From: Candidatus Nomurabacteria bacterium
Lineage (GTDB): Bacteria; Patescibacteriota; Minisyncoccia; Phycocordibacterales; UBA9973
Direction of reading: 5' to 3'
Length of the DNA: 64,000 bases
Assembly (NCBI GenBank): GCA_021413905.1
Contig: JAIOPO010000004.1
Span: forward strand, 1,597-65,596
Below the pieces are notes generated by a model that saw only the letters and a list, made by a program, of their open reading frames with translations, was not told the origin of the DNA and searched no databases. A program made the translations under genes and the position numbers. Shown piece by piece: positions 24,621-40,344 of the stretch; within the stretch, counting starts at the first letter, position 1; each line of letters begins with the position of its first letter.

Positions 24621-25259
24621 ATGAAAAATCAAAAAAGTGATCAAAATTTACTTGAGCAAGAAATCTCACAAGAACTTGCCAATGCAGAAAAAATTGCAAA
24701 ACAAGTAATAGCTAAAAAAAACAGAGCTAATTCTTTAAAAGAAGAATTGGACAAAGCAAAAAAAATAAAAGTATCTAGCGTCGTTCATAAATATCAAAAC
24801 CATGCGACTACTGTTACATGGAAAGATATAGAGGAATTCAATATTAAAACCGATAAACTTCTCCTTGATATAATAGAAGAAGTTTTTCAAAAAAACAAAA
24901 CAGTTCACTCTCCAAAACAGACTTATTTTCATTCGAAAATAGAAGAGTACTCAACAGACTTTGAGGTAATCAAAAACCTTAAAATAAATACTTTTCTGAG
25001 TATTGAGGAAATAATAATACTCTGTTATGATCTTATTTTAACAGAAAGATCCGGTAGTGGGCCATTGTATAACTCGGATTTTAAAAAATCAAAAATCCTT
25101 AATCTTGGCTATATAAATCACCCAGATTTAGGACTTGCATCAATCAGACTGGAAAGAAAAAGACTAAACCATTCTGAAGGCGAAGCAAGAGAGTATCACT
25201 TGCATTTTTACAGTGAAACAAGGCGATATTACGCGGGAAATGAATTTCTCGTTAAATAA
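24621..25259 (+). CDS. Hypothetical protein (isolated transcription unit)
   Basis: ORF bracketed by two strong terminators; no recognisable family. Confidence 0.35.
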   Translation: MKNQKSDQNLLEQEISQELANAEKIAKQVIAKKNRANSLKEELDKAKKIKVSSVVHKYQNHATTVTWKDIEEFNIKTDKLLLDIIEEVFQKNKTVHSPKQTYFHSKIEEYSTDFEVIKNLKINTFLSIEEIIILCYDLILTERSGSGPLYNSDFKKSKILNLGYINHPDLGLASIRLERKRLNHSEGEAREYHLHFYSETRRYYAGNEFLVK

Positions 25260-27422: not shown

Positions 27423-28897
27423 TAATCTTTTCGTAAAAACAAAGGCTCAATGGGCATTTTACCTGACTTCACTATTTCAATAATTTTTTTACTGGTTTCC
27501 GGAAGAACGGGCGTCAACATCTGACCTATATTATGCAATTTTATTACCAAATTTTTTATTATTTCCAACGCTTCTTCTTTGTTAGTTTTAACAAGTTTAA
27601 ACGGTTGTTTACTTTGAATTGTTTCATCTAATTCTGTAACATGTTCAAATACAATATTCATTGCTTCTGTAATATTAAAATTATTCATTGCAATCAATGC
27701 AGGCGTCCAGTCTTCAGACAATTGCATTTGTGGAATTTCTACAGGTTTTTCAAAATTCGTCTCCGCCATTTTCATAATTCTACTTGTTAAATTTCCCAAA
27801 CCATTCGCCAATTTTGCATTGTAACAATCTTTAAAACGCTCCATTGTCACAGGAGAATCTTCGAAAGAAGAAATTTCGGAAAGAAGAAAAAATCGCAAAG
27901 CGTCTGTACCATATTCATCCACGATATCTTTCGGATTTATAACATTACCCAAAGATTTTGACATTTTTACACCTCCTCCACCCATAATAAAACCATTGAT
28001 TATTATCTGATGAGAATTTGGCAAATCAGCTGCCATTAGCATCGCTTGCCACATTGCAGACTGAAAACGCAAATTGTCTTTTCCGCAATACTGCGTAGGG
28101 TTTCCATTTACCCAGTATTTTTGAAATTTCTCACTTGCGACAAGACTCTCCAAAGTATCCACACCTTCATCCGCCAATGTAGAAATATAATTCGTCAAAG
28201 CATCAAACCACACATACATCACATGTTCGCTATCGTTGGGCACTTCTATTCCCCACGGCATTTTATTTTTCAACCTTGAGATTGAAAAATCTTGCAAACC
28301 TCTTTCTACAAAAGATTTTATTTCATTAAATCTAAAATCAGGCACGACAAAATCCGGACGTTCTGCATAAAATTTATTCAATTTTTCTGTAAATGCACTA
28401 TATTTGAAAAAATAATTTTCTTCTTTGATTATTTCGAGCTTTGAACCCGGATGATCCGGACATTCGCCATTTTCATTTAATTCAGAATCGGTTTTTTCAC
28501 TTTCACAACCCACGCAATATTTTGTCTCATAATTTTTCTTGTAAATGTAGCCGTTGTTAAAACATTTCATCCAAAAATCTTTAGCAATGTTTTCATGTTT
28601 TTTATCTGTAGTGCGAATAAAATTCAAATCGTCGCTCATTCCAAAAATCTTCACGGATTCTTTGAAATTTAAAAAACTCTGATCTACAAATTCTTGCACG
28701 GAAATATTTTGCCCTTTTGCTTTTTCAAAAATCTTCATACCATGTTCATCCGTGCCAGTGTTAAAATAAACATCAAAATCTGCAAGCTTTTTATAACGAG
28801 CAATACTGTCAGCACGCACAAATTCAAGAGCATGACCCAAATGAAGATCTGCGTTCACATATGGCAAAGTTGTAGTAATGTAAAAACTATTTTTCAT
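27422..28897 (-). CDS. metG: Methionyl-tRNA synthetase
   Basis: HLGH and KMSKS class I motifs; MetRS zinc-knuckle cysteines. Confidence 0.95.
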   Translation of the reverse strand: MKNSFYITTTLPYVNADLHLGHALEFVRADSIARYKKLADFDVYFNTGTDEHGMKIFEKAKGQNISVQEFVDQSFLNFKESVKIFGMSDDLNFIRTTDKKHENIAKDFWMKCFNNGYIYKKNYETKYCVGCESEKTDSELNENGECPDHPGSKLEIIKEENYFFKYSAFTEKLNKFYAERPDFVVPDFRFNEIKSFVERGLQDFSISRLKNKMPWGIEVPNDSEHVMYVWFDALTNYISTLADEGVDTLESLVASEKFQKYWVNGNPTQYCGKDNLRFQSAMWQAMLMAADLPNSHQIIINGFIMGGGGVKMSKSLGNVINPKDIVDEYGTDALRFFLLSEISSFEDSPVTMERFKDCYNAKLANGLGNLTSRIMKMAETNFEKPVEIPQMQLSEDWTPALIAMNNFNITEAMNIVFEHVTELDETIQSKQPFKLVKTNKEEALEIIKNLVIKLHNIGQMLTPVLPETSKKIIEIVKSGKMPIEPLFLRKD

Positions 28898-29963
28898 GGC
28901 TCATTCTGGCAAAAATCTTATCTTTTTCAATATCATTCAAAAATTCCATTATACAAACAGCAAAAGGAATAGCGAGTATTAAGCCCCACACTCCACCCAA
29001 ATCAAAACCGATCAACACTGCCAAAATCACAACCAAAGGAGACAAGCCGATAACTTTTCGCACTATTAAAGGAGCTAAAAGATAAACTTCAAATTGATGA
29101 ATTATTAAATATGCTCCGGCAACCATCAATGAACTGGACAATCCTCCGGACAAATACGCCAAAGCTATTGCAGGAATCATTGCTATTAAAAATCCATAAG
29201 GGACGAGTTCCACAATACCTGTCAAAATTGCAAGTAAAAATGCATATTGTATGCCAAGCAAAGACAAAACCAAATAAACCAAAATACCCACAAGTAAACC
29301 AAGCAACATTTGTCCCTTTATCCAAAGGGCTATCTTTCTGCGTGAGCGTTCCCACAAATCCACTGCATAATTTTCATGTTTAGCCGGCACAACAATACGT
29401 AAGAAATTCTCTATACCCTTTTCTTGAATAGATAAATAAAAAGAAATTATTATAATCATACCGACATTGAACAAACTTCCGAAAGCAACGGACAATGTTT
29501 GGAAAAATCCTCCGGAAAGATTTGAAATGAAAGCTTTTGAAGTTGCAAGCAATGTGCCAAGAGAAAAATTATGAGAAAGAGTATTTACAATATTTTTTGC
29601 TCCGGAGAAAGCATCATTTTGAAAGAAATCCAAGAAATTCGCATCTGGAATATATGATTCTAAAAATACTGAAAAATTATATATTTCAGTTATGAGCAAT
29701 GGAGCGAAAAGATAAAACAAACCCGCTAAAAATAAAATGGAAATAACATACAAAATAACAACAGTGGAAACTCTGCCAATACCTATCTTTTTAAATCTTG
29801 AAACAGCAGATTCCATAAAAGAAGCTATAACTATCGAGGTCAAAAAGACTAAAACAATATCTCTCAAGAAATATATTAAAAAGAAACCCAAACCCACTAA
29901 TACAGCACGAATCATTGTATTGGTAGATATGGACACATTTATATTTTTGTCTTTTTCTTGCAT
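28887..29963 (-). CDS. AI-2E family transporter (PerM/UPF0118)
   Basis: About 8 TM helices and the conserved GxVELVPYGF-like motif. Confidence 0.7.
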   Translation of the reverse strand: MQEKDKNINVSISTNTMIRAVLVGLGFFLIYFLRDIVLVFLTSIVIASFMESAVSRFKKIGIGRVSTVVILYVISILFLAGLFYLFAPLLITEIYNFSVFLESYIPDANFLDFFQNDAFSGAKNIVNTLSHNFSLGTLLATSKAFISNLSGGFFQTLSVAFGSLFNVGMIIIISFYLSIQEKGIENFLRIVVPAKHENYAVDLWERSRRKIALWIKGQMLLGLLVGILVYLVLSLLGIQYAFLLAILTGIVELVPYGFLIAMIPAIALAYLSGGLSSSLMVAGAYLIIHQFEVYLLAPLIVRKVIGLSPLVVILAVLIGFDLGGVWGLILAIPFAVCIMEFLNDIEKDKIFARMSHEK

Positions 29964-29985: not shown

Positions 29986-31254
29986 CTAAACTTTCAAAAA
30001 AGGCAGAAATTCTTTACTGTCATTAAATGGACCAATAAGAGCAAGATTTAATTTGTCATTTTTAAATATTTCTCTAGCCATATCACGCACTTGTTTTGGG
30101 GTCACCATCTTTATTTTTTTTGCTTTTTCTTCAGCTGATTCTATTTTCTTTAAAAGTATTTCTTGTCCTCCGTAAAAATTGGCAATATCATCTGTGGCTT
30201 CCAAACCCATTTTCATACCGGAAATAAAAATCTCTTTTACTTTATTTAATTCTTTTTCTGAAACAAGTTCATCTTTTAATTTTGAACATTCTTCCAATAT
30301 CGCAGTGATGACTTCTTTGACACGCTTATTGTCCACACCAGAAGAAATCTGAAATACTCCGTGGTCAGTATACGGGTCTGTATTTGCGCGAACATAATAA
30401 CAAACTCCCATTTCTTCGCGAAGTTTATAAAAAAGTCTGGAGCTCATCCCTGCACCCAAAACACCGGACAATACGGACAGTATTGCATTTTTTTTGTTAA
30501 AAATATCAAATGCGCGAAAACCTAAAACAAAATGTGTTTGATCTGTGGCTTTATGTTTTATTTTAATATTTGGCTTATCTTGTTTTTCAATTGTCTTTAT
30601 TTTTCCAAATTTTTTATCATTCTTTAAATCACCAAAAGCTTTTTTAATTTCCTGCATCATTTCTTTTTCAGATACTCCCCCTGCGACGACCACCGTTGTG
30701 GCTTTTGGAACATATTGTTCTTTTTTATATTTAACAAAATCATCGCGTTTCATTTTTTTAATATTCTCAATCGGACCGGCAATATTCCAACCCGCAGGCT
30801 GATCTCCATACAATACTTCCATAAGCATGTCTTGCACATGACGCATTGGTAAATCTTCATACATATTTATTTCTTCTATTATCACTCCTTTTTCTTTTTC
30901 CATTTCAGTTTCTGGAAAAGTGGAATTCAAATAAATATCAGAAACTACATCAAAAATTTTCTTGAAATGTTTCACATCACTTTTTGCATAATAACCTGTA
31001 TATTCTTGGCCGGTAAAAGCATTGTATTGCGCTCCCATAGTGTCTAACTCTGTAGAAATATCACGCGCAGTCGGACGCTTTACAGTACCCTTGAAACACA
31101 TATGTTCCAAAAAATGTGATAAACCGTTTAACTCTCGAGTCTCATATTTGGAACCTGTTTCCACCAACACCAAAGCTGTCACCGTCGGGCTTTCTTTCAT
31201 TGGTATTGTAATAACTCGTAACCCATTCTTTAAAATTGTTTTTTTAGCTTTCAT
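29986..31254 (-). CDS. M16 family zinc peptidase (insulinase-like)
   Basis: HFLEHM inverted zinc-binding motif (HxxEH) near the N-terminus. Confidence 0.85.
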   Translation of the reverse strand: MKAKKTILKNGLRVITIPMKESPTVTALVLVETGSKYETRELNGLSHFLEHMCFKGTVKRPTARDISTELDTMGAQYNAFTGQEYTGYYAKSDVKHFKKIFDVVSDIYLNSTFPETEMEKEKGVIIEEINMYEDLPMRHVQDMLMEVLYGDQPAGWNIAGPIENIKKMKRDDFVKYKKEQYVPKATTVVVAGGVSEKEMMQEIKKAFGDLKNDKKFGKIKTIEKQDKPNIKIKHKATDQTHFVLGFRAFDIFNKKNAILSVLSGVLGAGMSSRLFYKLREEMGVCYYVRANTDPYTDHGVFQISSGVDNKRVKEVITAILEECSKLKDELVSEKELNKVKEIFISGMKMGLEATDDIANFYGGQEILLKKIESAEEKAKKIKMVTPKQVRDMAREIFKNDKLNLALIGPFNDSKEFLPFLKV

Positions 31255-31264
31255 GCCTTTTATA

Positions 31265-31762
31265 TTAGCACATTTTTGAAAGTGTTTCTTTTATCTCTTT
31301 ATTATTATGAACAATGAAAACTTGTTTTGTATCTTTATAGCTTTCAGCTAAGACAAGCATTTCTTTGTTTGGCCATAGGAGAATGTATTTTATTAAATCA
31401 AAACTAATCTTTTGTTTTGCTCCATCTGGTTTATCAAATGGCTTATCTGTATTAAAAATTCTTACAAAAGCTCTCCATACACATCTCCACTTTGGAAAAT
31501 CAAAAAATATAATTACATCAGCTCTTTCTAATCTACTAGGAAGAGTTTTTTTATAATTACCATCAATAATCCATTTGTCTTGTTTTACAAATGGCTCTAC
31601 TGCATTTTTAAATTCCATTTTTGTGGAATATACTTCTTTCCAGTCTTTAGTCCAGTACAATTTATCAAGATGCACCACTGGTAAATCTAATTTCTTTCCA
31701 AGCTCATTTGCCAATGTAGACTTCCCTGATCCAGATACTCCAAAAATAGTTATTCGATCCAT
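31265..31762 (-). CDS. P-loop NTPase, topology-modulation (FlaR)/adenylate-kinase-like putative nucleotide kinase
   Basis: Walker A GVSGSGKST at the N-terminus and a WIIDGNY motif. Confidence 0.55.
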   Translation of the reverse strand: MDRITIFGVSGSGKSTLANELGKKLDLPVVHLDKLYWTKDWKEVYSTKMEFKNAVEPFVKQDKWIIDGNYKKTLPSRLERADVIIFFDFPKWRCVWRAFVRIFNTDKPFDKPDGAKQKISFDLIKYILLWPNKEMLVLAESYKDTKQVFIVHNNKEIKETLSKMC

Positions 31763-31822: not shown

Positions 31823-32200
31823 CTACATACTACTCTTTTTTGTATCATAAGGTTTAGCTAATTTAAAAGTTTTAAAGTTATCCCCTATTTTTATTTCTTT
31901 CAAATAGCTCGTAAAATCTTTCGGTAAGGGTGAAGGTCCTACCCAAACACTTTTTTGAATCATTACATAACCGAACTTAATTAAATGCCTACGAAACCAA
32001 TCGCGTTCTTTCTTTTGCTCACTAGGAATGTCGTACATGATGATTAAATTTTTTACAGAATCTTTTTGAAAAGGTGACAAAAAAGAGCCAAGATAAAGCC
32101 GCTTTGGATTTTTTATTATTGAATTTTTCTTTTCGCTAATTAAAATGGGTAAACCAAAAGAATTTACTTTTACACCTTTATAATATTTAGACATGAACAT
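31823..32200 (-). CDS. Cas2-family protein (type II Cas2-like core) with ~50-aa N-terminal extension; orphan, no cas1 or CRISPR array in window
   Basis: IIMYDIPSEQKKERDWFRRHLIKFGYVMIQKSVW aligns with SpyCas2 [37 protein letters not shown]. The core may start at the internal Met (~32038). Confidence 0.55.
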   Translation of the reverse strand: MFMSKYYKGVKVNSFGLPILISEKKNSIIKNPKRLYLGSFLSPFQKDSVKNLIIMYDIPSEQKKERDWFRRHLIKFGYVMIQKSVWVGPSPLPKDFTSYLKEIKIGDNFKTFKLAKPYDTKKSSM

Positions 32201-32288: not shown

Positions 32289-32933
32289 TTAATAACTAAA
32301 GTCTTGTATCTTTAAAAATACAAGATTATCTTTTTTATTATCGTCATAAAAACCATTTATAAATTTCTCGAAAACATCCCATTCTTTATGGTATCCATAA
32401 ATAAATTTATTATATTGTTTTAAATATTTTGGCAAAAATTTCATAAACGCAAATTCAGAAAGAATATAATGAGTTCCAATTTGAATATCACTTAATTCAA
32501 TACTTTTCTTTTTAAAAGGATTTTCTATCAAAACATTTTTTGTTGCTTGATTTATATCTTTTTCAAAGTCTTTATTTGTAAAATATAAATTTTTAACGTA
32601 ATTATATTCTTTTTTATAATCATTATTATTTTCAATATTTTCTTTTTGCCAATCAAAAACTAGAATATGACTTTCATTAAGATTTTGATTTTTAATAGAT
32701 CTTTTTACTCTATTTTTAAAATTATTACCTTGAGGAATTGCTTTTTTACCACGTGCAATATTTTCTGAATAACCAAGAGCTAGGTATGTTGAAATTGCTG
32801 GAACATCTGGAATAAATATTCCTAAATTTAAATACTCATCTGAATATTTTTTTAATATCCTATCAATAACCTCTTGTTTAAAGTAGCCATTACCAGGACT
32901 CATCCCTATAACTAAAAAATCTTCTACGTTCAT
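32289..32933 (-). CDS. tRNA-dependent cyclodipeptide synthase (CDPS family, NYH subtype)
   Basis: VIGMSPGNGYF matches the catalytic-Ser box (AlbC GISAGNSYF, YvmC GISPFNSRF). YILSE matches the AlbC Y178/E182 box (YVLAE). YGYHKEW matches the Y202-H203 box. ATG lies 2 nt after the glyS stop. Confidence 0.7.
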   Translation of the reverse strand: MNVEDFLVIGMSPGNGYFKQEVIDRILKKYSDEYLNLGIFIPDVPAISTYLALGYSENIARGKKAIPQGNNFKNRVKRSIKNQNLNESHILVFDWQKENIENNNDYKKEYNYVKNLYFTNKDFEKDINQATKNVLIENPFKKKSIELSDIQIGTHYILSEFAFMKFLPKYLKQYNKFIYGYHKEWDVFEKFINGFYDDNKKDNLVFLKIQDFSY

Positions 32934-32935
32934 TT

Positions 32936-34264
32936 CTAATTCAATTTATTTTTTATATAAGAAATTAATTCAGAAATTTTTATTCTTTCTTGGTTTCCGG
33001 TATCTCGATCGCGGATAGTCACAGTATCCAAAAGCTCTGGATTTTCACCAAGGGTGTCGAAGTCGATGACGATGCACCACGGCGTGCCGATTTCGTCTTG
33101 TCGGCGATAACGCTTGCCGATGTTGCCATTGTCATCCCAAGCCACACGGCCGAATTCTTTTTTTAACATAGAAAATACTTCCCTACTTTTTGATACTAAT
33201 TCTGGTTTATTTTTCAACAGTGGAGACACAGCACAAAGCACAGGGGCAATTTGTGGACGAAGTTTTAAATATATACGAACTTCTCCACCCATTTCATCTT
33301 CAGTATATGCAGATAATAATATAGCTAATAATGCCCTCTCTACACCAAATGAAGGCTCTATCACATGTGGAGTAATCTTTTCGCTGTTCTCCTCGTCTAC
33401 ATATTCAAGCTTGTGTATCTTCAAATCAAAATCTCCTCGATATGCAAGACCGAAAAGCTCTTTTCGGCCAAAAGGATAATCAAACTCAAAATCTACTGTG
33501 CGTTTTGAGTAGTGTGCCAAATCTTCTGATACTACTTCAAGCTCGTGTACTTTATTCATATCAATACCCACGCTACTCATCCATAAATGCATTTCATTTT
33601 TCAATTCATTAAAAGCATTTTCCCAATTATTTTCTCGTACAAAATATTCTATTTCCATTTGCTCAAATTCACGAGAACGAAAAATAAAATCTCTGGGTGT
33701 AATTTCATTTCTAAAAGCTTTACCAATTTGAGCAATACCAAATGGAATCTTTGGATGATGTGTGTCCACAATGTTTTTAAAATTCACAAATATTCCTTGT
33801 GCAGTCTCTGGGCGAAGATATGAAATAGCAGAGGAATCTTCTGAGGCTCCCACTTTTGTTTGAAACATCATATTGAATTGGCGAGCTTCCCCTAGTTTGC
33901 CTCCACAATCAGCACAATTATTTTTATCTTCAATTTGATCTATTCGAAAACGATGCTGACATTTTTCACATTCTACCATTGGATCTGCAAAATGCTCCGC
34001 ATGTCCGGTAGCTTGCCACACTTCTTGACGCATCAAGATTGCAGCACGAATACCATACATATCTTCACGATTAGAAACAAATTTTTCCCACCAAGAATTT
34101 TTTATATTATTTAAAATTTCATTTCCAAAATGCCCATAATCCCAAGTGCCCGCAAATCCCCCGTAAATTTCAGAACCCGGAAAAATAAAACCGCGTCTCT
34201 TACAAAGACTCACTATTTTTTCCATTAACTCACTTTCTTCTTTTTTATTTTCTTTATTAGACAT
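32936..34264 (-). CDS. glyS: Glycyl-tRNA synthetase (class II, dimeric archaeal/eukaryotic-like type)
   Basis: Class II motifs and the GlyRS-specific FIFPGSEIYGG...WDYG region. Confidence 0.9.
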   Translation of the reverse strand: MSNKENKKEESELMEKIVSLCKRRGFIFPGSEIYGGFAGTWDYGHFGNEILNNIKNSWWEKFVSNREDMYGIRAAILMRQEVWQATGHAEHFADPMVECEKCQHRFRIDQIEDKNNCADCGGKLGEARQFNMMFQTKVGASEDSSAISYLRPETAQGIFVNFKNIVDTHHPKIPFGIAQIGKAFRNEITPRDFIFRSREFEQMEIEYFVRENNWENAFNELKNEMHLWMSSVGIDMNKVHELEVVSEDLAHYSKRTVDFEFDYPFGRKELFGLAYRGDFDLKIHKLEYVDEENSEKITPHVIEPSFGVERALLAILLSAYTEDEMGGEVRIYLKLRPQIAPVLCAVSPLLKNKPELVSKSREVFSMLKKEFGRVAWDDNGNIGKRYRRQDEIGTPWCIVIDFDTLGENPELLDTVTIRDRDTGNQERIKISELISYIKNKLN

Positions 34265-34276
34265 ATTTATATTAAA

Positions 34277-36217
34277 TTATTGTATAACAGTATTGGACCC
34301 TGCCGAAGCATTCGAATCATTTGATAAACTTATATTAAGCGTGCCTTTATTGACCTGTATATTCACATTAGCAAAATCATCGTGTCCCGTCAAAACGAGA
34401 TTATTTACCAATGTCGGAGATGTAGCCACTTGAGAAGAAGAAGGAGTAAATGCTAATTGAAAAGATATTTCTCTATCGGCTTCTGTAATACCAGTTCCGC
34501 GTGGAATACCGCCGATATTCCAAACTAAATCATGAGTTGAAGGATTGTAATTCAAATCTTCATTTGCCGGAGAAATACTTCCGACAAATCTGACCCATGG
34601 TGGCAATGTCGTCATGAGTTGAGCTTTGGAAATATTGTTGGCTGTATTTGAAAGAGTCCAGACTACTGTATAGGTAGTCTCTTGTCCGACTTTCGGAGGA
34701 ATGGGTCCATTATTTTTAAATGAACCGGAATAATACAAAATTTTATTTGCAATACCTAAATCAGAAGTGATACGAATTATTTTTGATTCAGAATTATTTA
34801 ATTGTTGCAATACATTGCCTTCTACAGCTTGTTTGCCATTTATAGAAACATCGATATTTACAGTGGGTGAATTTGCAATACTCCCTGCAGAAAATAAAGA
34901 TATTGGAGAAAATGAAAAAGACAAAGCACCAGACGCTCCGGGTTCTACTTCAGACAAAGTACTATCAGCATTTTTATCCCAAATAATAGTATTTTGATTT
35001 GAATCATAAAATCCACCTTGTGTATTTATGGTTTTCCTATTCACAGCATTGCCGGAAATCTTTGCGACAATTTGCAAATCATTTACTTTTGTAGGTAAAT
35101 TATTTACCCAATTTATTTGTCCTTGTATTGGTGTTTTAGAATCCACTGCGTATTCTCTTTGGTATACTCCATTTATAAAAAGCTGAGCATCGATAAATGG
35201 TTTTTTGATATTTATAGTATGACCTAAAGAATTAAATACAATACCTATCAAAGTCTTGTCATTGTCAGCTTGTGAACCACTCCAAACATGAAAAGTTTTA
35301 TCTTCACCATCGGAAACATCGGACATTTTGCCTAAAATTGTAATATTGCTTTCTGCTCCTGGAGCCAAATCACCCAAAGACCAAACGTTATTACCAAAAG
35401 AAGGCATCGGTATTGCTTTATCAAATTGAAAACCAATAGGATAATCCACTCTTAACAACATTTTATTTACTGTTTTTGTTGAATTGAGAGTCGCTTTTAT
35501 ATTCAAAGTAATATCTTGATTCGGACTTGCTTCTGTCGGCGCATCTATGGATAAATTAATCGGGGCTGAACTTATAGACACAGGATAATCTTTTTCTTTT
35601 ACGAAAATAGCATTGGAGCCTTCGACCCTGTATTCAATTGAAATCTTTACTGGTTGAATACTGTCTTGTTCTCCAAACAAAACTATTTTTGTATTTTCAG
35701 TATGAACAGATCCGGCTGATACCGTTCCGATTGATTGACGCAAATGCGACATATTTCCGGAAGCATCACTGGAGCCTTTTGGATAATCAATAACGAGATC
35801 CACTAATTGCAAATCGGCATTATTTCTATTTGTTATTTCTATTTGCAAAGGCAATTCTTCCCCACCGGCAGTAAAAGTATTTCCCAAAACAGCAATATCT
35901 ATATTGTCATTCGACACTGTATTTCCGCCAAAGAAAAAAGAATACGAAGCAAATAACATAGCCAATATAAAAAAACCTATCGAGAACATAAAGAATTTCT
36001 TGAACATTGAAGTTTTCATAAAAAATTTATTCATAGTATTTTCTTGTTTTTCCGTAGCCCAAACATCAGGCACGTCTATTTCTTTTGATTCTGAAAAACT
36101 CGTATGATATGGGTCGTGCACTTTATAACCCTTGCTAAACAATCTGACTTTCATCTCTTCAAGTCTATTTAATTTACCTTTATCATTTTCTAACATCTGA
36201 TAATTATACCATTTCAA
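34277..36217 (-). CDS. Hypothetical membrane-anchored large protein with repeated beta-sandwich-like extracellular segments
   Basis: Single TM helix after a ~70-aa cytoplasmic N-terminus; Asn/Ser/Thr-rich beta-type repeats. Confidence 0.35.
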   Translation of the reverse strand: MKWYNYQMLENDKGKLNRLEEMKVRLFSKGYKVHDPYHTSFSESKEIDVPDVWATEKQENTMNKFFMKTSMFKKFFMFSIGFFILAMLFASYSFFFGGNTVSNDNIDIAVLGNTFTAGGEELPLQIEITNRNNADLQLVDLVIDYPKGSSDASGNMSHLRQSIGTVSAGSVHTENTKIVLFGEQDSIQPVKISIEYRVEGSNAIFVKEKDYPVSISSAPINLSIDAPTEASPNQDITLNIKATLNSTKTVNKMLLRVDYPIGFQFDKAIPMPSFGNNVWSLGDLAPGAESNITILGKMSDVSDGEDKTFHVWSGSQADNDKTLIGIVFNSLGHTINIKKPFIDAQLFINGVYQREYAVDSKTPIQGQINWVNNLPTKVNDLQIVAKISGNAVNRKTINTQGGFYDSNQNTIIWDKNADSTLSEVEPGASGALSFSFSPISLFSAGSIANSPTVNIDVSINGKQAVEGNVLQQLNNSESKIIRITSDLGIANKILYYSGSFKNNGPIPPKVGQETTYTVVWTLSNTANNISKAQLMTTLPPWVRFVGSISPANEDLNYNPSTHDLVWNIGGIPRGTGITEADREISFQLAFTPSSSQVATSPTLVNNLVLTGHDDFANVNIQVNKGTLNISLSNDSNASAGSNTVIQ

Positions 36218-36864: not shown

Positions 36865-39800
36865 TTATTCTATCACAACCTTAAATACCAATTCGTTGAT
36901 TTTTATTTCATTGCCGTCATTTTTTGTAAAATCAATTTGTTTAACGCCGACAATCTTCAAAAATTCATCTTTGAATTTATTTATTATTTCTTTGCCTTTT
37001 TCATCAGTATCAATTTTCAACACTATCAAATCACTAGGCATCAAACCTTTTGTTTTCCGCATATCTTGCACAGCTCGCACTAGCTCGCGATAATTGCCTT
37101 CTATTTTTAATTCTGGTGTGATTTCTGTATCTAATTTTATAACATCTTCTACATTTTCAGATTTAATAAATTCAACATTTTTTATATTCAATTCTTCTTT
37201 TAGAATCTCTATATAATTTATATTAAATTCATGATAAAAAATTTGAATATTACTCAAAGGCTGTCTTACGGGAATTCCTGATTTTTGTCTTTCTTTTAAA
37301 CCAGATGAAACAATTTCTCTGACTTGTTTCATATTTTCTAAAATTTCATCATTAAAATTTAAAATATTTACTTCCGGCCATTCTGCCAAATGTACAGATT
37401 CTACATCATTTTTATTTTTTAATTTTTGCCAAATATCTTCGGACGCAAAAGGCGCAAATGGGGCCATAATTTTCACTAAATTTTTCAACACAAAATACAG
37501 AGTTTGTTTTGCTTCGATATCTCCATTTTTAATTCTCTCTCTTGAACGACGCAAATACCAAGTAGAAAGATCATCGATAAAATCACGAACAGCACGCACT
37601 GGTTCCAATGTTCTATAATTGTCTAAATTATCTGTTACAGTTTTATTCAATTCATTTAAACGCGCCAAAATCCATTGATCTAAAATATTTTCAGATTTTA
37701 ATTCTGTGAATACTTCTAATTGTGGATCTCTATAGAGTTCATAAAAAGCGACGACGTTATAAAGCAAACCAAAAAATTGACGATGAATTTCCATGACAGT
37801 TCTCTCATCAAAATTCTTTGATTCACCCGGTTGATTTACGGAATACATCCAAAGACGAATAGTGTCCGCGCCATATTTTTCAAACATAAGCCAAGGGTCC
37901 ACGACATTTCCTTTTGACTTTGACATTTTTTGTCCATTTGCGTCTAAGATATGCCCCAAACAAACGACATTTTTATAAGCATTACCAGGTTCATCAGAAA
38001 GTAAATTTATAACTGCATGCAAAGTATAAAACCATCCGCGAGTCTGATCTATCGCTTCAGAAATATAATCCGCTTTTATCGGATTAAAATCAATCTCTTT
38101 ACCCAGAATATGATTTTGAGCATAAGGCATAGCCCCAGAATCAAACCACACATCCATCACTTCTCCCGTGCGAATCATTTTTTGACCATTATCTTCCAAA
38201 ACTATCTCATCAATATATGGCTTATGAAAATCCAATTCGTAATTTGCATTATGAGGTAATGGCACAAAATCTAATTCCTTGATTTCAGCATTTTGAAAAA
38301 AATGAAAATCTTTTTTATCTAAAATCATTTTTAATGTTTCTTTTACATTTTTTCCTTCAATACCTGCACACAACAACCAAGCAGGACCACCATGAGTCAC
38401 AAATAAAATATTTTTGTCTTTGTATTTTTCTTCAACATCATACAAAAATGCTGTCATACGATTTTTCACATCTTGATATGATTCATCATCCTCTACATGC
38501 AAATTAAAATTTGCTTCCGTTTTTATGTGATATTTATGATATTCTTCCCAATTCTTTCCATCAAAAGAATACGCTCCTATTTCTCGCAGTCTTTCATCTT
38601 TGATAATATTTTCTTTATTCAATCCCAATTTTTGAGCGACGATTTCCGCAGTTTCAATAGTACGAGTAAAATCAGAAGTAAATATCAAATCAATTTTTTT
38701 ATCTTTCAGAAATTCTGCGGAAATTTCCACTTGCTCTTTACCGTCTTTATCTAAATGCCATTTACCTGAAGGTTGTGTGCAAATTATATTTTTTTTATTT
38801 GCTTCTGTTTCTCCATGTCTCATTACAAAATATTTATTGCCTGATTTTTTAGTATATTTTTTCAAATCAGCCAAAGAACCGACAACTTTATAAGAGCCAT
38901 CTTCTTTTTGCCAAACAGGTATCGGTGTACCCCAATATCTATCTCTGGATATAGCCCAATCTTTTATACCATCAAGCCATTCACCAAAACGTCCTTTTTT
39001 AATATATTCCGGCTCCCAATTTATTTTTTCATTTCCTGCGAGCAATTGTTCGCGAAGCGCACTCATGCGGAAATACCAAGAAGAACGTGCGTAATAAATG
39101 AGCGGTGTATCACAACGCCAACAATGCGGATAGCTATGCATATAATTTTCTTTTTTAAACAAAAGACTTCGTTCTGTTAAATGATTTATTATATCCACAG
39201 CCAAAGTAGGTTTACCGTTCTCATCTGTTTCTTTTACATATCTACCTGCTAAGAAATCCGTACCGATGACGAATTTTCCTTCTTCATTTACTGTATGATA
39301 TTTAGGCAAACCGACTTTTGTACCAAGCTCAAAATCATCTGCTCCATACATAACAGCGGTATGCACTATACCCGTACCGTCAGTAGTCGTAACAAAATCC
39401 GCTCCGTAAATTTTAAAAGCATTTTTTATTTTTTCATCATCTTTAGCCAAATCTTTTAAATATGGGAACAATGGTTCGTATTCCATACCAATCATTTCAC
39501 TGCCTTTATGTTCAGCAATAATTTCATACGGCTGATTTAATATTTCCAATCTTTCTTTTGCCAACACTAAAATCTCATCACCGACTTTTGCCTCAACGTA
39601 AATAAAATCATTACCAACTGCAAGTCCGACATTTCCCGGTAAAGTCCAAGGCGTTGTCGTCCATGCCAAAAAATATGCGTGATCGAAATTTTTAATTTTA
39701 AATTTTATATATACGGACAAATCTTTCACATCCTTATATGCTCCCGGTTGTGAGAGTTCATGACTTGAGAGGGCCGTACCACAACGTGTACACCAAGGCA

Positions 39801-40344
39801 AAACCTTAAAATCTTTATATAAAAATCCTCTATCATTTATTTTCTTTACAACACCCCACAATGCTTCTATATAACTGTTTTCATATGTCACATATGGATT
39901 TTCTTGGTCAATCCAATAACCCATTCTTTCTGTAAATTTATTCCAAAATTCCAAATATTCCCAAACATTCTCTTTACACTTTTGATTAAAAAGTTTTACA
40001 CCATAATTTTCTATTTCTTTTTTTGATTTTAAACCAAGAGCTTTTTCCACAGCCAATTCAACAGGCAAACCATGTGTATCCCAACCCCCTTTTCTACCAA
40101 CATGAAAACCTTGCATTGTTTTGTAACGAGGAACAACATCTTTGAAAGAACGAGCTTCTAAATGATGAATACCTGGTTTACCATTTGCTGTCGGTGGTCC
40201 TTCATAAAAAATATAATCTCCTTTTGGATTATCTTTTCGATTTATCGTCTTTTCAAAAATTTTATTTTCTTTCCAGAATTCTAAAACTTTTTCCTCACGC
40301 AAAGCTGTCTCACTTTTTGTAATATTTTCTTTATTTTCAGACAT
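36865..40344 (-). CDS. ileS: Isoleucyl-tRNA synthetase carrying an inserted histidine-phosphatase (PGAM-like) domain
   Basis: PGIHHLEA (HIGH), KMSKS and CP1 editing region are present. Between the WAISRDRYWGTPIP and DVWFDSG motifs lies a ~170-aa RHGETEAN...IFTSDFTRTIETAEIV...VTHGGP insert. Confidence 0.9.
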   Translation of the reverse strand: MSENKENITKSETALREEKVLEFWKENKIFEKTINRKDNPKGDYIFYEGPPTANGKPGIHHLEARSFKDVVPRYKTMQGFHVGRKGGWDTHGLPVELAVEKALGLKSKKEIENYGVKLFNQKCKENVWEYLEFWNKFTERMGYWIDQENPYVTYENSYIEALWGVVKKINDRGFLYKDFKVLPWCTRCGTALSSHELSQPGAYKDVKDLSVYIKFKIKNFDHAYFLAWTTTPWTLPGNVGLAVGNDFIYVEAKVGDEILVLAKERLEILNQPYEIIAEHKGSEMIGMEYEPLFPYLKDLAKDDEKIKNAFKIYGADFVTTTDGTGIVHTAVMYGADDFELGTKVGLPKYHTVNEEGKFVIGTDFLAGRYVKETDENGKPTLAVDIINHLTERSLLFKKENYMHSYPHCWRCDTPLIYYARSSWYFRMSALREQLLAGNEKINWEPEYIKKGRFGEWLDGIKDWAISRDRYWGTPIPVWQKEDGSYKVVGSLADLKKYTKKSGNKYFVMRHGETEANKKNIICTQPSGKWHLDKDGKEQVEISAEFLKDKKIDLIFTSDFTRTIETAEIVAQKLGLNKENIIKDERLREIGAYSFDGKNWEEYHKYHIKTEANFNLHVEDDESYQDVKNRMTAFLYDVEEKYKDKNILFVTHGGPAWLLCAGIEGKNVKETLKMILDKKDFHFFQNAEIKELDFVPLPHNANYELDFHKPYIDEIVLEDNGQKMIRTGEVMDVWFDSGAMPYAQNHILGKEIDFNPIKADYISEAIDQTRGWFYTLHAVINLLSDEPGNAYKNVVCLGHILDANGQKMSKSKGNVVDPWLMFEKYGADTIRLWMYSVNQPGESKNFDERTVMEIHRQFFGLLYNVVAFYELYRDPQLEVFTELKSENILDQWILARLNELNKTVTDNLDNYRTLEPVRAVRDFIDDLSTWYLRRSRERIKNGDIEAKQTLYFVLKNLVKIMAPFAPFASEDIWQKLKNKNDVESVHLAEWPEVNILNFNDEILENMKQVREIVSSGLKERQKSGIPVRQPLSNIQIFYHEFNINYIEILKEELNIKNVEFIKSENVEDVIKLDTEITPELKIEGNYRELVRAVQDMRKTKGLMPSDLIVLKIDTDEKGKEIINKFKDEFLKIVGVKQIDFTKNDGNEIKINELVFKVVIE

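Follow-up and report, generated by a model that had tools for sequence, protein, structure and literature searches.

Does a cyclodipeptide synthase (CDPS) gene that starts 2 nucleotides (nt) past the stop codon of a glycyl-tRNA synthetase (GlyRS) gene use the tRNA charged by that enzyme, or does it lie there only because that is where it landed? The question is raised by a minus-strand gene pair in a 64,000-nt stretch of DNA from a Candidatus Nomurabacteria bacterium (contig JAIOPO010000004.1, positions 1,597 to 65,596), referred to here as the window. A first-pass annotation read the second gene of this pair as a CDPS, proposed that it forms an operon with glyS and makes a glycine-containing cyclodipeptide, and named a peptidase and an exporter encoded downstream as possible partners. 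We consider it likely that an NYH-type CDPS gene was inserted into a row of housekeeping genes and that its adjacency to glyS reflects the landing site and not the tRNA that it uses. The gene pair reads as follows.

32289..32933, minus strand: CDPS gene of the NYH subfamily, in a stand-alone form of 214 amino acids (aa), assigned from profiles, an AlphaFold2 model and residue mapping.
32934..32935, minus strand: 2-nt spacer AA between the TAG stop codon of glyS and the ATG start codon of the CDPS gene, read from the sequence.
32936..34264, minus strand: glyS, encoding an alpha2-type glycine--tRNA ligase (NF003211, 556.9 bits against a cut-off of 312).

Judged from its sequence, the 214-aa open reading frame (ORF) is a genuine NYH-type CDPS with a complete predicted catalytic set. 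The ORF itself, its three motifs (VIGMSPGNGYF at residues 8 to 18, YILSE at residues 156 to 160, and YGYHKEW at residues 179 to 185), and its start across the minus-strand junction TAG-AA-ATG (TAGAAATG) are all as first described. The assignment to the CDPS family is borne out by matches well over the cut-offs, both to Pfam PF16715 (77.1 bits, E 2.1e-21; gathering score, 27) and to TIGR04539 (102.1 bits, E 3e-29; cut-off, 45). A direct phmmer search of the PDB with the window protein gave weak matches (E 5e-5), and AlbC and the XYP structures were reached only through a family profile built from 31 relatives. That profile retrieved BtCDPS, YvmC, Shae-CDPS, Rv2275, and AlbC at E values of 4e-20 to 2e-13; matches to XYP structures were far weaker (E about 1e-8 for ParcuCDPS). 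An AlphaFold2 model computed on the 31-relative alignment (mean pLDDT, 95.9; pTM, 0.90) has the Rossmann-type fold expected of a CDPS. The first 44 PDB matches found for it by Foldseek were all CDPS structures, with TyrRS far lower, and TM scores ranged from 0.77 to 0.83 across YvmC (0.81 to 0.83), AlbC (0.77), and BtCDPS.

The catalytic residues are likewise in place. AlbC S37, N40, Y178, E182, Y202, and H203 correspond to S12, N15, Y156, E160, Y181, and H182 of the window protein, and none of the six varies among the 31 relatives; the mapping comes from sequence and profile alignment rather than from superposition of coordinates, with the AlbC sequence and numbering verified against 3OQV. 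The NYH subfamily is defined by Asn40, Tyr202, and His203 in AlbC numbering (PMC5816076, PMC7613923), and the invariance of N15, Y181, and H182 in the clade upholds the placement made earlier. The N terminus is short, with about 5 residues ahead of the first strand, and a helix spanning residues 57 to 82, which carries K63, K64, K73, R75, K77, R78, and K81, aligns to the R/K-rich helix (alpha4) of AlbC.

To place the glyS side of the junction in context, metagenome contigs were scanned with the window GlyRS and the best 80 loci (52 to 79% identity) were kept. A CDPS gene was found in none of these 80 loci, 66 of which continue for 600 nt or more downstream of glyS. Many of the related loci have a conserved row, ileS-recO-X-glyS-M16-AI2E-metG, in which X encodes a protein of 646 aa. 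The gene for the M16 peptidase directly follows glyS in at least 14 CDPS-free loci (for example, L085, L087, L099, L100, and L141), and that for the AI-2E transporter holds a conserved place behind M16, or immediately behind glyS, in CDPS-free loci. The window glyS is the housekeeping GlyRS gene of this ancestral conserved row and not an extra biosynthetic copy. The members of the row that flank the gene pair in the window, and the genes that lie between them, are listed here.

34277..36217, minus strand: conserved 646-aa protein X, ahead of glyS (recO-X-glyS), matched by position with tblastn.
31823..32200, minus strand: Cas2-like/PaaX_M-domain protein, 125 aa (PF20803, 50.9 bits; PF09827, 31.9 bits).
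31265..31762, minus strand: P-loop NTPase or kinase-like protein, 165 aa (weak matches to AAA_18 and other P-loop families, below the gathering score).
29986..31254, minus strand: M16 peptidase (PF00675, 129 bits; PF05193, 125 bits).
28887..29963, minus strand: AI-2E family transporter (PF01594, 154.8 bits).

Between glyS and M16, then, the window holds the CDPS gene, the Cas2-like gene, and the P-loop gene. The last two are both absent from the two other loci in which a CDPS gene follows glyS (L058 and L076, described below), and tblastn matched the 165-aa P-loop protein to none of the related loci. Other genomes carry different cargo at the same junction.

L093:2538-3050: YafQ/RelE-type toxin-antitoxin pair.
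L096:7383-7845: HicAB pair (HicA toxin).
L095:6215-6775: CYTH-domain protein.
L095:6850-7452: PaaX_M-like protein, 200 aa.

Occupancy by the CDPS gene is patchy at equal kinship: L058 has the gene (recO, 65%, and M16, 64% identical to those of the window), and L100 is without it (recO, 70%; M16, 65%). The junction between glyS and M16 is a small variable slot in a conserved housekeeping row, and the CDPS gene is accessory cargo, a newcomer to it. Because the M16 and AI-2E genes stand in the row where there is no CDPS gene, they are housekeeping members rather than CDPS partners, and the roles in tailoring or export suggested for them fall away. They do lie downstream on the same strand, as was noted, although not next to the CDPS gene, from which they are separated by the 125-aa and 165-aa genes. 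Protein X, which had no Pfam or PADLOC match, was matched by tblastn in the corresponding place in about 40 related loci (21 to 60% identity) and also in L058 and L076; it looks like a conserved lineage-specific protein. Farther along the minus strand, the window encodes an IleRS-like class I synthetase of 1159 aa (36865-40344) with a His_Phos_1 domain (PF00300, 118 bits) inserted in its catalytic core at residues 506 to 676, around which the tRNA-synt_1 match is split.

A second set of loci was assembled from the CDPS side. A pattern scan restricted to one genome per species yielded 75 CDPS loci; glyS lies upstream of the CDPS gene in L058 only, and look-ups of the closest proteins added L076. 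With the window, this makes 3 glyS-linked CDPS genes in about 80 loci examined. L076 encodes protein P0002, a CDPS 75% identical to that of the window, in the order recO-X-glyS-CDPS-M16-AI2E; in both L058 and L076 the CDPS gene directly precedes M16, so that the junction holds the CDPS gene alone. The orthologues at the glyS junction are intact and 62 to 75% identical. Relatives at about 60 to 63% identity occupy unrelated contexts: among hypothetical genes and a GH3 gene (L078), near MacB and thioredoxin genes (L079), near SPOUT and Avd genes (L080), and after reverse-transcriptase and helicase genes (L081). The CDPS gene follows dnaK in L002 and L004, follows lysS (L003:4529-5992) with a gap of about 6 nt in L003, and adjoins serS (L022:7431-8690) in L022. 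In L003 and L022 the neighboring aminoacyl-tRNA synthetase (aaRS) thus has another specificity, and yet the CDPS pockets are nearly identical. The glyS-CDPS synteny is therefore not conserved, and with glyS in 3 of about 80 CDPS loci and a CDPS gene in none of the 80 related glyS loci, the idea of a conserved aaRS-CDPS operon does not hold up.

Adjacency to an aaRS gene is itself about as frequent as chance would give. Such genes account for 4 of 133 immediate CDPS neighbors (about 3%), encoding GlyRS, LysRS, a further class II D/K/N-type enzyme, and SerRS. Genomes of 600 to 1,000 genes carry about 20 aaRS genes, which gives a similar figure of about 3% by chance; in the window, 3 of the 58 called genes encode an aaRS. 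Nor is the 2-nt spacing exceptional. Gaps of 2 nt or less, or overlaps, separate 12 of the 45 same-strand neighboring gene pairs in the window (27%), and the CDPS gene sits within a co-directional run of 20 genes, so this spacing is the usual packing there.

The residues that line the substrate pockets bear on which tRNAs the enzyme would use. Following a published pocket code (PMC5816076), we took P1 as AlbC positions 33, 35, 65, 67, 119, 185, 186, and 200 and P2 as positions 152, 155, 156, 159, 204, 206, and 207. The window protein reads VGFPWFMY in P1 and ANVEKWD in P2, and the clade consensus is I/V-G-x-P/A-W-F-x-Y in P1 and A/T-x-V-x-K/R/N-W-P in P2; position 207 is Asp in the window protein, where Pro is usual in the clade. 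VGFPWFMY is found in all three glyS-linked enzymes and in the unlinked P0003, P0006, P0008, P0009, and P0019, and the P1 motifs of the unlinked P0010, P0012, and P0024 differ solely by Ile at the first position. With P1 shared by linked and unlinked enzymes alike, the residues that set specificity do not track the neighboring gene.

Among characterized enzymes, the P1 motif closest to that of the window protein belongs to CDPS 82 (LGFPWFMF; 6 of 8 positions), which makes cyclo(Pro-Leu). It is followed by CDPS 83 (VGLPWFFF; cPR; 5 of 8) and, at 4 of 8 each, by Nvec-CDPS2 (LGFPWYIF; cWL), whose P2 ends in R/K-W-P as in the window clade, and by the cFI producer CDPS 84 (LGLPWFLF) and the cLV producer CDPS 77 (LGFPWLVF), whose similar motifs the authors of the code themselves raise as a caution (PMC5816076). 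The CDPSs known to use Gly (87, 8, 78, and 102, the producers of cGE, cGG, cGV, cCG, and cFG) have various P1 motifs and match at only 1 to 3 of 8 positions; the window pockets match none of them. Position 2 of the window P1 is Gly, where the cGE group has a Phe that blocks the pocket, and positions 204 and 206 of P2 are without the D-P signature of CDPS 8 and CDPS 102. The window P1 has the xGxPWxxF/Y pattern known from NYH enzymes that accept Pro, Leu, or Phe; no characterized cPX enzyme is a close phylogenetic neighbor of the clade. Our best guess from these residues is that P1 would take a small or medium-sized hydrophobic residue or Pro; Gly is neither indicated nor excluded. The pocket thus lends no support to a Gly-containing product.

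By analogy with AlbC and YvmC, the reaction can be sketched. The first aminoacyl-tRNA would be bound through the basic helix at residues 57 to 82, and its aminoacyl group would be transferred to Ser12 and housed in P1. The residue carried by the second aminoacyl-tRNA would then enter P2, giving a dipeptidyl-enzyme, from which a 2,5-diketopiperazine would be released by cyclization assisted by Tyr181, with Tyr156 and Glu160 also helping. Each of these steps is inferred for the window enzyme by homology with AlbC.

How the gene is expressed is a separate matter from what its product uses. Shine-Dalgarno motifs are essentially absent across the 58 called genes of the window. A TAnAAT hexamer lies within 22 nt of the start codon in 21 of the 58 (background, 6%; p about 1e-11), most commonly ending 6 nt before the start, a pattern that suggests that promoters lie close to start codons and that mRNAs are of the leaderless type in this organism. 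The CDPS start is preceded by neither a Shine-Dalgarno nor a TAnAAT motif, a promoter consensus scan performed at chance level (29 found, 27.8 expected), and no terminator was found between glyS, the CDPS gene, and the next gene. The glyS-CDPS gap of 2 nt in the window compares with gaps of 1 nt (L076) and 8 nt (L058); upstream spacers of the unlinked orthologues measure 120 to 270 nt. Because of the 2-nt gap and the missing TAnAAT motif, the CDPS gene is probably cotranscribed with glyS and translated by reinitiation, which makes the coupling suggested at the outset plausible. The window contains no tRNA genes, and no Rfam match (T-box or riboswitch) was found in positions 25000 to 48000.

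The enzyme family, its occurrence in the candidate phyla radiation (CPR), and the annotation of this very protein are already public, contrary to the initial impression that no CDPS was known from this lineage. An identical protein in NCBI is named tRNA-dependent cyclodipeptide synthase [Candidatus Nomurabacteria bacterium]. ParcuCDPS (CDPS 90), an XYP-type enzyme from Parcubacteria, has been characterized and crystallized and makes cyclo(His-Pro) and cyclo(His-Glu) (PMC5816076, PMC7613923). The supplement to the census of Gondry et al. of 2018 lists the NYH clade of the CPR under "unpredictable activity," with members from Ryanbacteria (OGZ44804), Andersenbacteria (OGY31047), Kerfeldbacteria (OGY85379), and Moranbacteria (OGI43181) and with P1/P2 motifs LGMPWFIY/TGCGRMP, VGLAWFLY/TAVGKWT, and IGFAWFLY/TGVGKWE (PMC5816076).

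The clade is large and belongs mainly to CPR/Patescibacteria. We collected 100 homologs of the window CDPS, mainly from metagenome-assembled genomes of Patescibacteria, which also predominate among the 75 loci of the pattern scan; labels among the latter include about 9 DPANN-type archaea, 7 Obscuribacterales/Melainabacteria, 1 Dependentiae, and a few others. A profile search of 1.84 billion cluster representatives returned 908 CDPS-like clusters, of which 121 had E values of 1e-30 or lower. Residues D43, P45, A46, T49, Y50, G54, Y55, W95, and W185 are invariant in the clade and unconserved in the aligned YvmC, BtCDPS, and AlbC. In 42 of the 75 loci an SBP_bac_3 domain is fused to the CDPS domain (37 loci) or encoded directly 3' of it (5 loci). 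The fused proteins are 406 to 508 aa long, with the CDPS in the N-terminal half and SBP_bac_3 (PF00497, 68 to 74 bits) in the C-terminal half and no hydrophobic or transmembrane segment between the two. They are encoded in L006-L008, L012, L014, L018-L020, L022, L023, L025, L026, L028-L039, L042-L044, L046-L054, and L056, with L006 cut by the end of its contig. The census describes this C-terminal fusion of about 250 aa merely as an "ABC transporter" domain (PMC5816076). Our literature searches returned nothing on a CDPS combined with GlyRS, the candidate phyla radiation, or solute-binding domains.

All-against-all clustering of neighbors across the clade loci revealed no conserved neighbor other than an archaeal regulator of the Lrp/AsnC type. 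This protein of 340 to 354 aa combines two winged-helix domains with a ligand-binding domain of the Lrp/AsnC type; its gene is divergently transcribed, on the opposite strand upstream of the CDPS gene, in DPANN-type loci (L059, L061, L062, L063, L065, L066, and L068). PaaX_M-type proteins occur near a CDPS gene or at the glyS junction in the window, L095, L019, L031, L002, L004, and L058; they lie within 5 kb of the CDPS gene in 6 of 71 loci and directly adjacent to it in 3, which could be due to chance if the family is common. Three other associations were considered and rejected. Some relatives lie near methylase, reverse-transcriptase, helicase, Avd, or restriction genes; however, the CDPS had no PADLOC match, its upstream neighbors belong to no consistent defense family, and the CasR/CARF matches reflect merely the winged helix-turn-helix of the archaeal regulators, so a link to antiphage defense was dropped. 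A search of 2.9 million viral contigs yielded 0 relatives, and carriage by phages or mobile elements was dropped as well. For a separate partner gene of the SBP_bac_3 type, tblastn over the 64-kb window gave nothing better than E 0.6; no SBP_bac_3 homologue is encoded there.

Several observations weigh against an incidental adjacency and have to be set beside the evidence for it. The tight glyS-CDPS spacing, 1 to 8 nt, is kept in three genomes whose GlyRS identity falls as low as 65%, so the arrangement has some persistence, and expression of the CDPS gene, which has no promoter-like motif of its own, is tied to glyS. The lining of P1 is bulky (F40, W95, F163, M164, and Y179), which would suit a small side chain and be compatible with Gly, and predictions for cPX-type pockets are called uncertain by their own authors (PMC5816076). 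A neighbor-joining tree does not set L058 beside the window and L076, although it is poorly resolved and all identities are about 60 to 65%, and gene calls in the related loci were made with simple ORF heuristics. The persistence, the missing promoter-like motif, and the bulky pocket are also what speaks for glyS and the CDPS gene as a functional unit, in which locally made Gly-tRNA(Gly) would be turned into cyclo(Gly-X), processed by the M16 peptidase, and exported by the AI-2E protein. We regard such a unit as very unlikely. Its glyS is a housekeeping gene in an ancestral row that is free of a CDPS gene in all 80 related loci; related CDPS genes lie beside genes for LysRS, SerRS, DnaK, helicases, and unrelated proteins, with the same P1 in linked and unlinked enzymes and no match to known Gly-using pockets; its supposed processing and export genes follow glyS where there is no CDPS gene; and more than a quarter of the same-strand pairs in the window are packed as tightly. 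Decay of the gene into a nonfunctional remnant is more improbable still. The accessory context, the patchy distribution, and the Asp at P2 position 207 in place of the clade's usual Pro would fit a remnant, but the ORF is intact and full length, it retains all the catalytic residues and those invariant in the clade, the model has very high confidence, and the orthologues at the same junction are themselves intact.

Two further readings concern the product rather than the position. The clade may form the aminoacyl-Ser intermediate from aminoacyl-tRNA and then hand its aminoacyl moiety to a different acceptor, such as a ligand bound by SBP_bac_3 in the fused relatives, so that the product is not a diketopiperazine. 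The coupling of a cytoplasmic, ligand-binding-type SBP_bac_3 domain to the CDPS in more than half of the loci, the clade's own invariant residues, the fact that no clade member has been characterized, and a literature search that found no paper joining "cyclodipeptide synthase" and "solute-binding" all leave room for this. We nevertheless think it improbable, because the residues for second transfer and cyclization (equivalents of Y178, E182, and Y202) are invariant, the SBP domain is missing from the window protein and from about 40% of the clade, no homologue of it is encoded in the window, and functional CDPSs fused to other domains are already known (PMC5816076). Less doubtful, and still only tentatively entertained, is the idea that the CPR/DPANN NYH clade makes a product or serves a role unrepresented among the approximately 120 characterized CDPSs. 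It draws on the invariant motifs peculiar to the clade, on the clade's size (at 50% identity, about 120 clusters), and on the SBP_bac_3 fusion in more than half of the loci. One example of such a role may be signaling between episymbionts with reduced genomes and their hosts by way of a conserved diketopiperazine, and expression of the CDPS gene may have become hard-wired to the glyS message in the sublineage of the window. A single-gene route to diketopiperazines would be among the few secondary-metabolite pathways that reduced genomes can afford. With insertion into a housekeeping row as the likely explanation of the locus, its residual value is as a pointer to an untested NYH clade that is widespread in CPR and DPANN genomes and often SBP fused.

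Compared with known systems, the window enzyme is nearest in sequence and structure to YvmC, BtCDPS, and Shae-CDPS, the NYH cyclo(Leu-Leu) synthases of Firmicutes (3oqh, 6ztu, and 6ez3). It resembles them in profile matches (E 4e-20 to 1e-16), TM scores (0.77 to 0.83), the Rossmann-type fold, and the Ser/Tyr/Glu/Tyr and N-Y-H residues; it differs in overall identity (15 to 19%), in its pockets, and in a much shorter N terminus that places the catalytic Ser at position 12 rather than 37, and those enzymes are without the motif D-x-P-A-x-x-T-Y-x-x-x-G-Y of the window family. AlbC of Streptomyces noursei, the cyclo(Phe-Leu) synthase (3oqv) that serves as the reference for mechanism and numbering, has equivalents of all six key residues at a TM score of 0.77, but its P1 (V65, V67, L119, L185, F186, and L200) is less bulky than that of the window protein (F40, P42, W95, F163, M164, and Y179). 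CDPS 82 of Streptomyces varsoviensis, of the cPX group, shares the xGxPW core of P1, whereas its P2 (LKAGQFE) is unrelated to ANVEKWD; we treat the likeness as a lead and not as a product assignment. ParcuCDPS, found in Parcubacteria bacterium RAAC4_OD1_1 (7qb8), belongs to the same superphylum but is of the XYP type, with a profile E value of about 1e-8, a TM score of about 0.61, and the pockets GAYAWELY/FEWKYTR. The NYH CDPSs of the CPR census have in common with the window protein the pocket pattern x-G-x-P/A-W-F/L-x-Y and T/A-x-V-x-K/R-W/M-x; the SBP fusion of about 250 aa occurs among them, and the window copy is the stand-alone form, in a Nomurabacteria-type genome. Finally, the valanimycin cluster reportedly carries a dedicated seryl-tRNA synthetase paralogue beside an enzyme that uses aminoacyl-tRNA. 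In clusters of that type the aaRS is an extra copy belonging to the cluster, whereas in the window glyS is the housekeeping gene and the CDPS gene is the newcomer.

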